In this document: piece after piece, positions 8,703 to 56,175 of the stretch | Layout of the letters: the number at the start of each line of letters is the position of its first letter | Position numbering within the stretch: the stretch's first letter is position 1 | DNA from: an uncultured Gammaproteobacteria bacterium | GTDB taxonomy: Bacteria > Pseudomonadota > Gammaproteobacteria > SZUA-229 | Direction: 5' to 3' | Assembly: GCA_963807625.1 (NCBI GenBank) | Contig: CAWECN010000011.1 | Span: 114,883 to 178,882 of the forward strand | DNA: 64,000 bases | Notes under the pieces: generated by a model | Told to the model about the DNA's origin: nothing | Seen by the model: only the letters and a program-made list of their open reading frames with translations | Databases searched by the model: none | Position numbers and translations under genes: made by a program

Positions 8703-9005
8703 ATCGGTTTGATAACTGGTCTGCCATTAAAAACAGGCACACCGTATATCTATCTCTAAAAAAATGATGGCGCATTTTACAGTAATAAGGGTCTGATTAA
8801 ACCTTAACTTTTCAGGGGAGGATATTTAACGTTACCCTAACCCATAAGAGGTATCATATGTTCGAAGTGACTACTATGGGGGCAATATCACAGATTTCAA
8901 TAGTAAGTATGCCAACCGCTATAGGTCAGGGTTTTTAGTGCATTAAACACGGCAAAATGCTAAATTGTGCGCCCTTTTACAGCGTAGCAAGCAAAGCCAT
9001 ACATC

Positions 9006-19815: not shown

Positions 19816-20148
19816 ATGAAAAATACTATGAAAAAATCACTGTCAGCTGCAGCAGGCGTAACATTCGTAGCAGCCATGTCTGCTTCACCGATCGCTAACG
19901 CTGATGCAAACCCGTTTGGTATGCAGAACCTGGAAAGTGGTTACATGCAGGTCGCTGAAGGTAAATGTGGCGAAGGTAAATGTGGCGAAGGCAAGTGCGG
20001 CGAAGGTAAAAAAGCTGGTAAAGAAGGCAAATGCGGCGAAGGTAAAAAAGCTGACAAAGAAGGAAAGTGTGGCGAAGGCAAATGTGGCGGCGATAAAGCT
20101 AAAGAAGCGAAGTGTGGTGAAGGCAAATGCGGCGAAGGTAAAAAATAG
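19816..20148 (+). CDS. MNIO RiPP precursor, HvfA/oxazolin-type (EGKCG repeats), Sec-exported
   Basis: GGAGA RBS before ATG 19816; signal peptide ending PIANA; DANPF..L.SGY motif; 8 Cys in 7x EGKCG plus 1x EAKCG; DUF692/DUF2063/DoxX genes 1.8 kb downstream. Confidence 0.88.
   Translation: MKNTMKKSLSAAAGVTFVAAMSASPIANADANPFGMQNLESGYMQVAEGKCGEGKCGEGKCGEGKKAGKEGKCGEGKKADKEGKCGEGKCGGDKAKEAKCGEGKCGEGKK
19957..20145 (+). repeat. Coding 15-bp repeat (GAAGGYAARTGYGGY) encoding EGKCG units
   Basis: Imperfect tandem 15-nt units interrupted by EGKKAGK, EGKKADK and GDKAK spacers. Confidence 0.9.
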
Positions 20149-42861: not shown

Positions 42862-44856
42862 TTATCTGAAGTTCCATGCCGCTGTCAGTAAAAAGTTTAT
42901 TTCCGGCGATGGGAAAAAAGCTTCTCGTGGCAGGAAGCTAACGGGGTCAGTACCCAACTGTCCCACATCAGAATACTGCTTGTTTAACACGTTATTCACC
43001 CTGCCACTGATTGTGAAATCTTCGATATTATATTCTGCCTTGATATTGACCACGCCATACCCCGGCAGCTTGCCTAACACGTTATCGAAATCACCAGAGA
43101 ACACACGGTCACTGATCGCGACCAGTTCACCGTATAACTGCCATGCGCTGGATATCGCATAATCAGTCGCTAACAACGCAGAATGTTTTGCCACAAACGG
43201 GATGTCCTTACCGGCAAAAGCACCACTGGATACTTCTGCATCGGTATAGGTATAACTTGCTGAAAGACCCAGACGCTTTGTCGTTTTCCAGTAACCACTG
43301 GTGATGATACCTGTGCGTTCTGTATCATCCAGGTTAATGTTGGCGAAGTTAACAGGATCGAAAGCGATCTCATTTTCCAGGTCGAGTTTGTAAATTATAA
43401 ATTTTGCTGAATTTCTTCCCTGTGTCCACTCTACACCCGTTTCCAGAGACAGGCCTTTCTGTGTGTCTAGCAAGATAGGAGAAAACGTGGGCGTATAAGC
43501 TGGCAGTAAAAATTCATCTACTTTTGCAAAACGGTAGTTCTGGTCTGCGCGCAACAACACGCGCACGTTCTTATTCGCCTTTATAGCAAGACCTAACGTG
43601 CCCACGGTAACATCATCATCCACCTGCACGCCTGATGGGTACAATGCAAATGTACCGGTATCACGTATCGAATTTTCTACACTTGCATAACGCAAACCGA
43701 GTGTCACATCGAGCAATTTTGTTGTCGGCACCACTGCCTGTGCATAGATAGATCGTTGCGACTGGTCATTTAACTGACCACCAAAACGCGAATATAACTG
43801 GTAATCACTTTCTACAGCGTCACCTCCGATCGTCAGCATGGTATTGTTCAGCGCAGGGACAAAGCCGATAAAGCGAGGTGTAAACTCCTTTATCACACGA
43901 TCCTGCGTAGCATTTTCTGTTTCAGCTCCAAACACAGAGCTCAACCTGAAAACACCTTCCGTATCACGCCGGGTCAGTTCACCTTCAAACGACCAGTTGC
44001 CAGCAAGCTCCTGCACCAGGCCGAGTCGACCTACCTGCGTTGTCGCATCGGAGAAATCGGTAGCAAAATTAGAATTTACCTGGCGCCGATCTGTTTCAAC
44101 CTCGTCTGCAAACAAGGTGCCTGGTGTGTTCAGCTCATCATCGATGTATTGCAGTTCAGCGAAGACCGAACCAGTGTTATAGTCATAACCTAGTTTGCCA
44201 AAACCATTCAGGTAAGACGATTCATTATGCTGTCGGTAATTGTCTGACTCACGGGCCTCCAGAGACAGGAGATAATTGACACCACTATCCATCGCCCGTG
44301 AGGTCATACCATGAAATTTCACCGTATTGTAACTGCCCGCTGACAACTCAAGTGAATGCCTTAAGGCTCCCGGTTTACGGGTGATGATATTGATAACACC
44401 GCCGACTGCCTGGTCACCGAACAGCACGCCGGCACTGCCCTGTAAGATCTCGATGCGTTCGACATCTTCGATCGCGATGCTGTTCAGATCAGGTGAAGAG
44501 ATATCCGGATTATTCAACCTGCGCCCGTCTACCAGCACCAGGGTATTTGAACCTGCACTCTCGGCAAAGCCACGCATACCGACCGTTGCCCGGCTGCCGT
44601 CGCCGTATAGATCATTGATCTGCACACCGCCCTGGCCGCGTAAGACTTCGACGATATGCCTGGAACCACTATCCTCGATCTGTTGACGTGAGATGACGGT
44701 GATGCTTGCTGGTGTTGTCAGCGTGCTCTGCTCGGTTCGCGCCGCACTGACGACGACCGCCGGTATTTCTTTTGCGCCCGTTTCTGTTTCAGAAAAGACG
44801 GGCGAAGCAGTGCTCGCCGTAATAACGACAACACCAAAAATTAAAAAATTATTCAT
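42862..44856 (-). CDS. btuB: TonB-dependent receptor, BtuB-like (cobalamin)
   Basis: Signal peptide, TonB box VVVSA, plug LVLVDG...ERIEILQGSAGVLFG..AVGGVINIIT, C-terminal W-x-F; preceded by a cobalamin riboswitch. Start ATG 44856 after GGAGG. Confidence 0.82.
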   Translation of the reverse strand: MNNFLIFGVVVITASTASPVFSETETGAKEIPAVVVSAARTEQSTLTTPASITVISRQQIEDSGSRHIVEVLRGQGGVQINDLYGDGSRATVGMRGFAESAGSNTLVLVDGRRLNNPDISSPDLNSIAIEDVERIEILQGSAGVLFGDQAVGGVINIITRKPGALRHSLELSAGSYNTVKFHGMTSRAMDSGVNYLLSLEARESDNYRQHNESSYLNGFGKLGYDYNTGSVFAELQYIDDELNTPGTLFADEVETDRRQVNSNFATDFSDATTQVGRLGLVQELAGNWSFEGELTRRDTEGVFRLSSVFGAETENATQDRVIKEFTPRFIGFVPALNNTMLTIGGDAVESDYQLYSRFGGQLNDQSQRSIYAQAVVPTTKLLDVTLGLRYASVENSIRDTGTFALYPSGVQVDDDVTVGTLGLAIKANKNVRVLLRADQNYRFAKVDEFLLPAYTPTFSPILLDTQKGLSLETGVEWTQGRNSAKFIIYKLDLENEIAFDPVNFANINLDDTERTGIITSGYWKTTKRLGLSASYTYTDAEVSSGAFAGKDIPFVAKHSALLATDYAISSAWQLYGELVAISDRVFSGDFDNVLGKLPGYGVVNIKAEYNIEDFTISGRVNNVLNKQYSDVGQLGTDPVSFLPREAFFPSPEINFLLTAAWNFR

Positions 44857-44861
44857 GAGAT

Positions 44862-44878
44862 CCTCCATAATATGGAGG
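44862..44878 (-). promoter_or_regulatory. SD-sequestering hairpin of btuB
   Basis: Minus strand CCTCCAT-ATT-ATGGAGG encloses the GGAGG RBS, which ends 5 nt before the ATG. Confidence 0.7.
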
Positions 44879-44951
44879 CAACAGGGAAAGCACAGCCTGC
44901 AGAGAACAGGATGCACCACACCATGCCGCCCGCCGCGACTTATGTATTACT

Positions 44952-45202
44952 AACATCAGGCCGGTCTCCGGGCTTATGGTGTGTACCTGTATTAACGCCG
45001 ATATAATCGCCGATAAAAAACGTCGATACCCGAACTATTTCCCTTCCCACGAAAGAATTCGCAGTGGTTGAATAATTCTCACCAATCACCGTTGCGGGGG
45101 CAGCGCTGGGATTATCCGGGTCTGCTCATACGAACAGCTCAAATGCACCAACTTCCCGATTATCTGTCATCAAAAAACGCTATGATGGCAGCACCTGATG
45201 TT
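44952..45202 (-). ncRNA. Cobalamin (AdoCbl) riboswitch
   Basis: Minus strand AACATCAGGTGC...AATCGGGAAGTTGGTG...AATCCCAGCGCTGCCCCCGCAACGGT...CCACTG...GGGAAGG...AAGCCCGGAGACCGGCCTGATGTT (B12 box; P1 closes). Confidence 0.93.
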
Positions 45203-45266
45203 GAAAATTCAAAAAACAATCACATCTTACACCACAAATGACGATAATATACTCCCTTTTAGGGAG

Positions 45267-52872: not shown

Positions 52873-54150
52873 ATGGGTAACATTATGATCTTTGAATCGT
52901 TCGCTGAAAGCCTGTCTTTCTTCTTATGGTCAACATTCATCATCGCGGTGATCCTCGGCGCGATAGTCAATAAAACCAACTTCTGCACCATGGGTGCTGT
53001 TTCCGACATGGTCAACATGAGTGACTATGGCCGCTTCAGAGCCTGGTTGCTGGCCATCGCCGTCGCTACTATCGGTGTCAGCGTGCTCGAATACATGGGA
53101 CTGGTCTCAGTTACCGACAGCTTTCCTAACTACCGGGGATCGCAGTTCATCTACATAGAAAACATCCTCGGCGGCATATTATTCGGTATCGGCATGACCT
53201 ATGCCAGCGGCTGTGGAAACAAGACATTGATACGTATCGGTGGCGGTAACATCAAGTCGATCCTTGTTTTCATCGTAGTCGCACTAATCGCCTATTACAT
53301 GACCACACCCTTCCCTGATAGTGACAAAACACTCTACAGTGTGTTGTTTTACGACTGGGTCAATCCCCTAGCTATCACACTCGATGGCAATCAGGATATC
53401 GGCGCACTCATCGGTGGCAGTGAAAATACCGAGATAATGCGTCTGGTCGTTGGCCTGGTCGTCGCTGCCGGCATGCTGTTCTATATATTCAAAGCGGCCG
53501 ATTTCCGTTCCAGCAAAGACAATATACTCGCCGGCATCGCCATCGGCCTGATCATTCTTACCGCGTGGTATACCAGCAGCAATATCGGCGTCACCGCTGA
53601 AGATACTGATTACTCCCTGGGGGAATACTATGCTGAATGGGACATGCTGGCAGAGAGTGATGAGGGCAAACCTGCTACAGGCCGGGCACTAAATTCACAG
53701 TCATTCACCTTTATCAATCCTATCGGACAGACCTACGGATACGTTAAAGACAGTTTTGATCCTGCACTATTAACATTTGGCCTGATCTCGGTATTCGGGG
53801 TCATCCTGGGCTCGTTCCTCTGGTCGCTGATAAGCAGGTCGTTCCGAATCGAATGGTTCGTCGATTTTAAGGACTTCATGAACCACTTTTTTGGCGCCAT
53901 CCTGATGGGTTTTGGCGGTGTTTTAGCGCTGGGCTGCACTATCGGCCAGGGCATAACCGGCATGTCAACATTAGCGCTGGGCTCGATACTCACCTTCCTC
54001 TCTATCGTCTTCGGCAGCGCCATGACCATGAAGATACAGTACTACAAGCTATGTTATGAAGATGAAGCCACTTTCAGCAAAGCATTTATCACGGCACTGG
54101 TCGATATGAAACTGTTGCCGGAATCGATGCGCAAACTCGATGCCATCTAG
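52873..54150 (+). CDS. YeeE/YedE family sulfur-compound transporter
   Basis: NFCTMGAVSD, ASGCGNKTLIRIGGG, MGFGGVLALGCTIGQGITG (conserved Cys motifs). Confidence 0.9.
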   Translation: MGNIMIFESFAESLSFFLWSTFIIAVILGAIVNKTNFCTMGAVSDMVNMSDYGRFRAWLLAIAVATIGVSVLEYMGLVSVTDSFPNYRGSQFIYIENILGGILFGIGMTYASGCGNKTLIRIGGGNIKSILVFIVVALIAYYMTTPFPDSDKTLYSVLFYDWVNPLAITLDGNQDIGALIGGSENTEIMRLVVGLVVAAGMLFYIFKAADFRSSKDNILAGIAIGLIILTAWYTSSNIGVTAEDTDYSLGEYYAEWDMLAESDEGKPATGRALNSQSFTFINPIGQTYGYVKDSFDPALLTFGLISVFGVILGSFLWSLISRSFRIEWFVDFKDFMNHFFGAILMGFGGVLALGCTIGQGITGMSTLALGSILTFLSIVFGSAMTMKIQYYKLCYEDEATFSKAFITALVDMKLLPESMRKLDAI

Positions 54151-54178
54151 GAATTCCTCCCAGAACTGACTTTTGGGT

Positions 54179-54463
54179 ATGGATTCTAATGACAATAAAC
54201 AGACCACAGATCACAAACCGTGGTTTGTTTATATCCTGCGTTGTGCAGACAATAGCCTGTACACCGGTGTCACGACAGATGTCAACCGGCGTCTGGATCA
54301 GCACAACGGCATTATAAAAAGCGGTGCCAAATATACCCGCAACAGGCAGCCGGTAACACTGGTGTACAAGGAAAAATCAAACTCACGTTCTGAAGCATGC
54401 AAACGTGAATATGCCATCAAGGACCTGACCAAATCAGAGAAAGAACAGTTAATCGATCGATAA
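54179..54463 (+). CDS. GIY-YIG nuclease (UPF0213/YhbQ-like)
   Basis: WFVYILRCADNSLYTGVTTD..RR..QHN...GAKYTR..P..L...E. Confidence 0.9.
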   Translation: MDSNDNKQTTDHKPWFVYILRCADNSLYTGVTTDVNRRLDQHNGIIKSGAKYTRNRQPVTLVYKEKSNSRSEACKREYAIKDLTKSEKEQLIDR

Positions 54464-54493
54464 TAAGAAAAAACTTATATAAAAGTGATTTAT

Positions 54494-54535
54494 TTGATAT
54501 GAGTCAAGTATAAAAATTCCGGCAACGTCTACTAT
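54494..54535 (+). promoter_or_regulatory. Class II FNR/Anr-dependent promoter
   Basis: TTGAT-ATGA-GTCAA (54494-54507, centre 54500.5); -10 TACTAT (54530-35); predicted +1 at 54542. Confidence 0.7.
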
Positions 54536-54541
54536 GTATCC

Positions 54542-54639
54542 GTCGTAGGTTTTCATAGTTCCTACGACAATGCCTCCGCATTGCCTCTCTCTCCTGAAGG
54601 CATGCACACGGCGTGAGCTGGTTACTCACGCCGTTTTTT
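54542..54639 (+). ncRNA. Candidate small regulatory RNA (~98 nt)
   Basis: Starts at the base of the hairpin GTCGTAGG/CCTACGAC; two further hairpins with CUCC loops; ends in an intrinsic terminator; no + strand ORF. Confidence 0.7.
54609..54639 (+). terminator. Intrinsic terminator of the sRNA candidate
   Basis: CGGCGTGAG-CTGGTTA-CTCACGCCG-TTTTTT. Confidence 0.85.
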
Positions 54640-54682
54640 ATTTCCCTCTTCTTATCCATATTTTTATGAATATTCTCCGACT

Positions 54683-54711
54683 TTGAAACGTCTAATGCGA
54701 TACTGTATATT
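54683..54711 (+). promoter_or_regulatory. Sigma70-type promoter for the DsrE-family gene
   Basis: TTGAAA-N17-TATATT. Confidence 0.55.
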
Positions 54712-54740
54712 TTCATGATTCGCACACCCGGAGACTCTAC

Positions 54741-55229
54741 ATGTCTAAACTGCTGTTTTTTCTATTAATATCGATTAACTTCCTGATAAATACATCAGTG
54801 ATTGCCGGCAACGCGAACAACGCTCCCTGGGGTAGCGCGAAGGTCATGCCAACAGAGTATAAACCGCAAAAAGTGGTATATGATGTTCATGTTAAAACCG
54901 TTAAAGCTGTCGAGAGTGTATTAGACCGCACCAGCTACCTGAGTACTATTACTGGCGCTGACCCGTTTGACCAGTCCATCGTACTGGTATTGCACGGACA
55001 GGAACTCAGCTTTTTTGCCATCAAAAACTATGAAAAATACCAGGATCTTATGAAGCGCGCGCAGAGCCTGGTAGAAAGTGAAGCACTCACCATCAGGATG
55101 TGTAAAATTGCTGCCCAGAGTCAGGGGTTCGCCGCTGAAGACATCCATGGTTTTATCGAGATGGTACCGATGGGTGACGCCGAAATTATTCGCCTGCAAT
55201 ATGAGGAAGGCCATGCTTACATGCAATAA
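54741..55229 (+). CDS. DsrE family protein, exported
   Basis: Signal peptide, KVVYDV, VLVLHGQEL, IRMCKIAA, FIEMVPMGDAEIIRLQYEEGHAY. Confidence 0.75.
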   Translation: MSKLLFFLLISINFLINTSVIAGNANNAPWGSAKVMPTEYKPQKVVYDVHVKTVKAVESVLDRTSYLSTITGADPFDQSIVLVLHGQELSFFAIKNYEKYQDLMKRAQSLVESEALTIRMCKIAAQSQGFAAEDIHGFIEMVPMGDAEIIRLQYEEGHAYMQ

Positions 55230-56175
55230 AACTTTATCGTTTATGATCTTCGCGCTAGTCTGCGGATCACTGGTCGCTGCTGAGAAGTATGCGCCTACCA
55301 GCGTCGAGATGGACGTAAAAAAAGTATCTGAACATGTTTATTATGTTGAAGGAAAACCTGGTATCGCTACCGATAACGAAGGTTTCATTTCCAACGCCGG
55401 TTTCGTGGTCACAACTGACGGTGTAGTCGTATTTGATTCCCTCGGCACCCCTTCACTGGCACATAAACTGGTACAAAAGATCGGGGAAGTTACTGATCAG
55501 CCCATCAAAAAAGTCATTGTCAGCCATTTTCATGCTGACCATATCTACGGCCTGCAGGTATTTGAAGAGTTGGGCGCTGAGATTATCGCTCCATACGGTG
55601 CGCAGAAGTATATCCAGTCAGAAGCTGCTGCCAGCCGGCTGGAAGAGCGCCAGTTCTCACTCGATCCCTGGGTGAACGAAGATACCCACCTGGTATTACC
55701 CGATACCACCGTGGAAAAATCATACTCTTTTCAACAGGGCGGCCTGAATTTTACTATCAACTACATGGGCAAGGCGCATTCTGATGGTGACATGACCATG
55801 CTCGTCGAACCTGACAAGGTCCTGTTTTCCGGTGATATCATCTTTGAAGGCCGGATCCCGTATGTCGGCAACGCCGACTCCAAGAAGTGGCTGGAGACCC
55901 TGACCAGGCTCGAGACCGAAGGCCTCAACGCCCTCGTTCCCGGACATGGCCCGGCGTCCAGCAATCCAAAAGAAACCATCTCGCTAACACGACGCTACCT
56001 TGCATACCTGCGTAAAGTACTGGGCGAAGGTATCGAGGACCTGACACCATTTGATGAAGTCTATGCAGCAGCCGACTGGTCTGAATTCAAAGACCTGCCT
56101 GCTTTCGAGGAAGGCAACCGCATCAACGCCTACCAGGTCTATCTATCGATGGAAGCGGAATTGCTTGAGCAGTAG
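55213..56175 (+). CDS. Periplasmic MBL-fold metallo-hydrolase (SoxH-like)
   Basis: Signal peptide from ATG 55213, SNAGFVVT.DGVVVFDSLG, SHFHADH, AHSDGD, FSGD, VPGHG. Confidence 0.85.
   Translation: MLTCNKTLSFMIFALVCGSLVAAEKYAPTSVEMDVKKVSEHVYYVEGKPGIATDNEGFISNAGFVVTTDGVVVFDSLGTPSLAHKLVQKIGEVTDQPIKKVIVSHFHADHIYGLQVFEELGAEIIAPYGAQKYIQSEAAASRLEERQFSLDPWVNEDTHLVLPDTTVEKSYSFQQGGLNFTINYMGKAHSDGDMTMLVEPDKVLFSGDIIFEGRIPYVGNADSKKWLETLTRLETEGLNALVPGHGPASSNPKETISLTRRYLAYLRKVLGEGIEDLTPFDEVYAAADWSEFKDLPAFEEGNRINAYQVYLSMEAELLEQ

Follow-up and report, generated by a model that had tools for sequence, protein, structure and literature searches.

The window analysed here, a single stretch of 64 kb, contains a candidate RNA gene of about 98 nt on the plus strand (54542 to ~54639), lying between a YeeE/GIY-YIG gene pair and an operon for an exported protein of 162 amino acids (P162) and a SoxH-like hydrolase. 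The genes and predicted features of the locus are listed below.

52873-54150, plus strand: YeeE/TsuA-like sulfur transporter (Pfam PF04143), before the GIY-YIG gene
54173-54463, plus strand: small GIY-YIG domain protein (Pfam PF01541), the upstream neighbour
54494-54507, plus strand: FNR-type box TTGATATGAGTCAA, family consensus TTGAY-N4-RTCAA, conserved in the homologues
54530-54535, plus strand: -10 hexamer TACTAT (family TAnnAT), followed by 6 nt and then G54542
54542, plus strand: predicted transcription start (G), placed by the -10 spacing and a conserved purine
54542-54568, plus strand: hairpin 1, an 8-bp stem with arms GTCGTAGG and CCTACGAC
54550-54560, plus strand: loop of hairpin 1, UUUUCAUAGUU (DNA TTTTCATAGTT), 11 nt, predicted unpaired probability 0.93
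54569-54577, plus strand: single-stranded linker AAUGCCUCC (family AUGCCUC), columns T32-C37 nearly invariant
54578-54605, plus strand: hairpin 2, GCAUUGCC paired with GGCAUGC, with covariation
54587-54597, plus strand: CU-rich apical loop CUCUCUCCUGA of hairpin 2, predicted unpaired probability 0.68
54608-54639, plus strand: intrinsic terminator with a 10-bp stem (54608-54634), loop CUGGUUA and U6
54667-54694, plus strand: promoter-like motif TGAATA-N16-CGTCTA(ATAC), outside the RNA and ahead of the P162/SoxH-like operon
54741-56175, plus strand: downstream neighbours, P162 followed by the SoxH-related hydrolase
54741-55229, plus strand: P162, exported, 162 aa, without a family match

The upstream neighbours also include a BatD-like gene, ahead of the YeeE/TsuA-like gene, and the YeeE-like protein scored under the cut-off of the TsuA-like family of NCBIfam. 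The distance from the upstream stop codon to the predicted start of the RNA is 79 nt. On the other side, the second downstream gene encodes a SoxH-related periplasmic hydrolase of the metallo-beta-lactamase fold. P162 found no match in Pfam and NCBIfam (best E = 0.13); despite this lack of a family, its identity across the clade is 64-97%, and it is absent from a few loci. The DNA of the window belongs to an uncultured gammaproteobacterium of sediments; the sequencing runs that best match it are sediment, marine and salt-marsh metagenomes, and the closest genomes, as judged by the YeeE-like neighbour, are MAGs labelled Gammaproteobacteria or Thiotrichaceae.

Related loci were fetched by means of the YeeE-like neighbour, and the intergenic region was conserved in 18 of the 50 loci obtained in this way. 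Metagenomes were scanned with the invariant 17-mer AGGTTTTCATAGTTCCT, and the matches were passed through a profile filter (nhmmer). About half of the 17-mer matches were due to chance; nhmmer and a covariance model built on 54 homologues split these cleanly from the family, all members of which score at least 60.8 bits, while the chance matches reach at most 25.3 bits. An exact 27-mer scan of genome contigs gave no match. In total, 61 homologous copies (59 distinct sequences) were collected from 18 species-representative MAGs and approximately 40 contigs of sediment, salt-marsh and mat metagenomes. The MAGs with the RNA include those of contigs CBDUKK010000002, JABDRN010000034, CAVWAI010000005, CAVQDO010000008 and JAJDNP010000008. 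The gene order around the RNA is unchanged, and its place and orientation are the same in 61 of 61 copies. The RNA is absent from loci in which YeeE is 51-72% identical, including those of Sedimenticola, Thiohalophilus and Ectothiorhodospira, with the exception of one locus (L018, YeeE 70% identical) that carries the most divergent member of the family. Therefore, the RNA is restricted to one clade.

The predicted structure of the 98-nt RNA is far more stable than expected from its composition, with a folding energy of -41.7 kcal/mol compared to -21.5 +/- 2.7 kcal/mol for dinucleotide shuffles (z = -7.4). The RNAalifold consensus of 54 sequences consists of three independent hairpins without a competing fold. 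Compensatory double changes were found in 15 of its 27 pairs, against 6.9 in shuffles, and 97.2% of the cells are paired across the alignment, against 89.0% in shuffles; not one of 500 shuffles equalled the real alignment on any of five measures, and register-shifted controls were paired in just 31-50% of the cells. The comparison with homologues and the test for covariation that the earlier note had proposed are thereby answered by 59 distinct sequences and by strong covariation in all three helices. In hairpin 1, 99.8% of the stem cells are paired and two pairs show compensatory changes, including an exchange of G-C to A-U in 13 sequences and the alternatives C-G, U-A or U-G at column 7/25, while its loop is unchanged in 53 of the 54 aligned sequences. 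In hairpin 2, compensatory changes occur in 5 of the 8 stem pairs with the loop CUCUCCUG kept. The linker between the two hairpins contains the anti-Shine-Dalgarno core CCUC, with a predicted unpaired probability of 0.96. The terminator hairpin has a folding energy of -15.9 kcal/mol, and 7 of its 10 pairs are GC, 7 of 10 are compensatory, and 99.8% of the cells are paired.

Several details of the structure first proposed need to be redrawn. A hairpin beginning at G54542 and complementary to a ribosome-binding site with AUG had been proposed, and it stands. The small second hairpin AATGC-CTCC-GCATT, on the other hand, is rejected: only 67% of its cells are paired, no better than in shuffles and with no covariation, and its formation would be at the expense of the covarying basal stem of the real hairpin 2. 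The stem TGCCT/AGGCA with its anti-Shine-Dalgarno loop (TGCCT-CTCTCTCCTGA-AGGCA, 54582-54602), formerly counted as a third hairpin, is real in both stem and loop, but it is just the upper part of the longer hairpin 2. Likewise, the GC stem with U6 was correctly recognized as a terminator, although it comprises 10 pairs, 7 of them GC, and not 9 bp. Two further observations concern variation within the family. The terminator loop CUGGUUA (54617-54623) and the flanking GUGAG/CUCAC hardly vary across 52 of the 54 sequences, in contrast to the freely covarying lower stem. In a divergent copy (L013, 1568-1729), the hairpin-1 loop reads UUUUAAGAGUU, an additional small hairpin lies in the linker, and P162 is missing.

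From this comparison, it can be said with high confidence that the RNA is a real, conserved and structured non-coding gene. A cmscan of the whole window at the Rfam gathering score returned only a cobalamin riboswitch located elsewhere (98 bits, 44942-45213, minus strand), which precedes an ORF of 685 aa (42862-44919) on that strand. Lowering the threshold to E<=10 over 54400-54800 added only a 13-bit chance match to STnc320 on the opposite strand. The absence of an Rfam match means that the RNA is not FnrS, AniS or PhrS, in agreement with the view that it is an undescribed RNA unlike FnrS. In the literature, no account of such an RNA in sulfur oxidisers was found. Therefore it is probably a new family of an already known type of regulator.

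In the window, the box of the promoter reads TTGAT-ATGA-GTCAA and agrees with the FNR consensus TTGAT-N4-ATCAA at 9 of 10 bases; its centre at 54500.5 lies 41.5 nt ahead of G54542. This placement of the box, together with the TACTAT hexamer, had been noticed previously, and both are confirmed, with the geometry being kept in every one of the 57 copies whose sequence covers the promoter. The pattern TTGAY-N4-RTCAA is present in each of these 57 copies and the perfect FNR consensus in 25. The distance from the box centre to the first base of the -10 is 29.5 nt in 35 copies and 28.5 nt in the other 22; from the end of the -10 to the conserved purine that opens hairpin 1, it is 6 nt in 55 copies and 7 nt in 2. 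Thus, the box centre falls 40.5-42.5 nt before that purine, taken as the predicted start, which is a G or an A in every homologue. Between box and -10, the sequence is unconserved and its length varies by one base. The pattern TTGAYNNNNRTCAA occurs once in the 64 kb window, compared to 0.48 expected by chance, so that taken by itself the window box has no significance; what makes it significant is its retention in 57 of 57 homologues. Across approximately 302 kb of homologous loci, only 8 other such boxes were found, of which 7 correspond to a single site common to a subclade. One subclade possesses a further perfect box, TTGATAAAAATCAA, approximately 66 nt upstream of the main box, within the 3' end of the GIY-YIG gene (L003:5526, L010:2514, L127:698 and L150:1604, and on the opposite strand in L067, L129 and L074); this could represent a second FNR site in tandem or simply reflect the coding sequence.

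In class II FNR promoters of E. coli, the site is centred at -41.5, or 29.5 nt upstream of position -12. Judged by its sequence, the promoter of the RNA has this class II FNR-dependent geometry, and the absence of a good -35 fits an activator-dependent class II promoter. Since the box cannot separate FNR, Anr, Dnr and FixK-like proteins, 'FNR' is to be read here as a regulator of the FNR subgroup. No gene for such a regulator is present within the 64 kb window. Dependence of the promoter on a regulator of the FNR family is considered likely.

Three conserved segments of the RNA, namely two loops and the linker, are predicted to be unpaired with probabilities of 0.68-0.96. The loop and 3' arm of hairpin 1 are complementary to AGGAACUAUGAAAA, that is, a ribosome-binding site with AUG. 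The complement of the loop occurs as a real ribosome-binding site and start codon in unrelated metagenome contigs (GGAGGAACTATGAAAACC), and masking of such a site by the loop is therefore conceivable. The variant loop of L013 loses the complement to AUG, which calls for caution against a strictly anti-start-codon view of the loop. A search of the window with GGAACTATGAAAA, allowing up to 2 mismatches, gave 4 sites (one of them the antisense of the element itself) compared to 1.7 expected, and no gene start was among them. When at most 1 mismatch was allowed, all fetched loci contained just 2 unrelated sites. The 10-nt complements that the earlier note had pointed out at the start of the ThDP-enzyme gene (28513) and in the 5' end of the RiPP precursor (19825) are at chance level. 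The duplex energies of the latter candidate (at 19816, -10.4) and of the downstream gene are both within one SD of the background (-8.9 +/- 2.3), and both were rejected as targets. Altogether, no target sites beyond chance were found in the 64 kb window and the neighbourhoods of approximately 9 kb around the relatives. Action of the RNA in trans by base pairing is assigned moderate confidence.

The position of the RNA in one place and one orientation in every copy requires that a role in cis be considered. If the FNR promoter served the P162/SoxH-like operon, the RNA and its terminator would form an attenuator or leader with factor-controlled read-through, leaving the short RNA as a by-product. 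In addition to the constant position of all 61 copies upstream of one operon, this reading draws on a MAG of a sister lineage without the RNA (L016), in which a FNR-type box, TTGACTGAAGTCAA (8741-8754, plus strand), lies approximately 70 nt before the start codon of P162; this suggests that the operon was or is in an FNR regulon. In that MAG, approximately 3.5 kb of other DNA lies between YeeE and P162. What speaks against such a leader is, first, the strength of the terminator (10 bp, U6), whose 5' arm has no complementary stretch of 5 nt or longer upstream; an antiterminator is thus lacking. RNAalifold shows no rival fold, and on the basis of these models an attenuator or riboswitch leader, in which an antiterminator competes with the terminator, would not be predicted. 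Moreover, the loops are invariant, which an attenuator does not need, the spacer from terminator to gene ranges from 78 to 280 nt, and the RNA is kept in five loci without P162 (L011, L013, L017, L136 and L143). The spacer also holds the separately conserved motif TGAATA-N16-CGTCTA, which occurs once in the window and, as a strict pattern with fixed spacing, in 39 of 54 homologues, with near-variants in most others. A conserved motif between terminator and gene indicates a separate promoter for the downstream operon, in line with what had been supposed from the sequence of the window; we take this motif to resemble promoters of ECF sigma factors (AAC-like -35, CGT -10), which suggests control of P162 and the SoxH-like hydrolase by an extracytoplasmic-stress sigma factor. 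A sigma-70-like TTGAAA/TATATT pair returned by the promoter scan was rejected as the downstream promoter, its -35 being unconserved. A cis-acting leader is therefore judged unlikely. The element could also be the structured 3' end of the YeeE/GIY-YIG transcript, with the short RNA arising by processing and the box being the site of a repressor or roadblock. The terminator scan found no other terminator following the GIY-YIG gene, so that of the RNA probably also ends the YeeE/GIY-YIG transcript and serves both. Three sediment metatranscriptomes and several runs of unrecorded type contain the locus as assembled contigs spanning the promoter and its flanks. Contigs of a metatranscriptome (X22) and of a run of unrecorded type (X29) connect the GIY-YIG gene with the element and stop at position 54644. 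A metatranscriptome contig of 433 nt spans GIY-YIG sequence and the promoter and likewise stops at 54644, and at least one other passes the terminator. These contigs are compatible alike with a discrete 98-nt RNA, with read-through and with DNA carry-over, and thus neither show nor exclude a discrete RNA. A promoter is indicated by the conserved -10, whose distances to the box and to hairpin 1 are fixed even though the spacer drifts. The box is placed as a class II activator site rather than as a roadblock, and the element is kept in two loci without the GIY-YIG gene (L008 and L146). A mere 3' end is accordingly quite improbable, and its terminator role does not conflict with an own promoter: one terminator may serve both transcripts, as in sRNAs of 3' regions that have their own promoters.

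The remaining alternatives concern the nature of the product. In a protein-binding RNA acting as sponge or decoy, the invariant loops, including CUGGUUA, would be recognition sites of a protein and no mRNA would be paired. The near-invariant upper stem and loop of the terminator are unusual for a plain terminator and speak for this possibility, as does the loop variant of L013 with its broken anti-AUG complement; the repeated motifs of sponges such as CsrB/RsmZ or CrcZ are absent, and CU-rich and anti-ribosome-binding-site loops are typical base-pairing seeds. We regard a protein-binding RNA as very improbable, while no reading so far accounts for both the upper stem and the loop of the terminator. 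A small protein could, lastly, be encoded by either strand, since two ORFs overlap the element in the window: one of 35 codons on the minus strand with an SD-like AGGA, and one of 38 codons on the plus strand. The former starts from an AGGAACT-ATG opposite the loop of hairpin 1, in the manner of a type I toxin; across the homologues it ranges from 5 to 63 codons, and similarity is confined to positions dictated by the promoter and stem motifs. The latter starts at ATGCCTCC; its length is between 3 and 91 codons, indels change its frame, and in 9 homologues the ATG is missing. Neither strand carries a conserved small ORF of the kind expected of a type I toxin-antitoxin or small-protein gene, and an antisense or coding element has almost no probability. 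What the sequence points to instead is the architecture of an Hfq-type sRNA: a putative promoter of its own, a predicted U-tailed intrinsic terminator and no apparent coding potential.

Small RNAs that depend on FNR are known from a few cultured model bacteria. FnrS, present in E. coli and other enterobacteria, pairs through single-stranded stretches. It resembles the RNA described here in being a short RNA with a FNR-activated promoter, an intrinsic terminator and C/U-rich unpaired regions. A passage of PMC13501541, which cites Durand & Storz 2010 and Boysen et al. 2010, describes FnrS as a repressor of the translation of mRNAs for aerobic functions. The two RNAs share no homology in sequence or structure, with no Rfam match even at E<=10, and the present RNA would be a functional analogue; its main seed is in a hairpin loop at the extreme 5' end, and its hosts are a clade of uncultured sulfur oxidisers. 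AniS of Neisseria (FNR-dependent) and PhrS of Pseudomonas (Anr-dependent) are independent sRNAs of oxygen limitation under regulators of the FNR family, which indicates that such regulators arose repeatedly. Both are unrelated in sequence to the present RNA, for which the scan of all Rfam families gave no match. PhrS encodes a small peptide and activates a target, whereas nothing in the RNA found here points to a peptide or to target activation. Similarity to 3'-region sRNAs of the DapZ/MicL type lies in the own promoter and in a terminator that is the sole one for the upstream operon; the promoter in the present case is intergenic and not within the upstream coding sequence, and the sharing of the terminator is a presumption. 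Conserved seeds in hairpin loops also recall kissing sRNAs of the OxyS-fhlA type, which may serve as an analogy of mechanism only.

The proposal of the earlier note that this locus encodes an undescribed sRNA, with a FNR-type class II promoter and conserved anti-start-codon and anti-Shine-Dalgarno loops, is supported by the comparative analysis, the dependence on FNR being a prediction from sequence. We prefer the explanation that the locus is a gene in its own right, whose product is a non-coding RNA of approximately 98 nt (54542 to ~54639, plus strand). A regulator of the FNR subgroup, occupying the class II site with its centre at -41.5, would activate the RNA whenever the oxygen or redox state activates the regulator itself, and the intrinsic terminator would end it. 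The RNA would then display three unpaired segments, namely the hairpin-1 loop (anti-start-codon and anti-ribosome-binding-site), the AUGCCUC linker and the CU-rich anti-Shine-Dalgarno loop of hairpin 2. These segments would most likely pair with the translation-initiation regions of mRNAs from elsewhere and block the binding of ribosomes, resulting in a post-transcriptional extension of the FNR regulon, as with FnrS in E. coli. In this scheme we infer the start site, the dependence on FNR and oxygen, the action in trans and the repression of translation. As a whole, the reading as an independent trans-acting, base-pairing sRNA activated by the FNR family is considered reasonably probable.

With slightly less assurance, though still in its favour, the RNA can be seen as the first oxygen- or redox-responsive riboregulator described for uncultured sulfur-oxidising Gammaproteobacteria of sediments. 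Wedged between a thiosulfate-transporter-like operon and a SoxH-like operon of ECF-sigma type, it would allow a FNR-type sensor to redirect translation at the oxic-anoxic boundary, perhaps that of sulfur-oxidation or respiratory genes, with a 5'-terminal loop as the seed that masks the ribosome-binding site and start codon. The kind of regulator is not surprising, and the view of how such regulators work is left unchanged. The comparative support is unusually clean, comprising an invariant operator, covarying helices and invariant seeds, and the covariance model is ready for annotation of what is a candidate Rfam family. If true, these findings imply that a FNR-dependent sRNA evolved independently in sulfur oxidisers that are abundant and uncultured in coastal sediments, where oxygen boundaries shift, and the level of the RNA in metatranscriptomes could serve as an in situ marker of their FNR or redox state.
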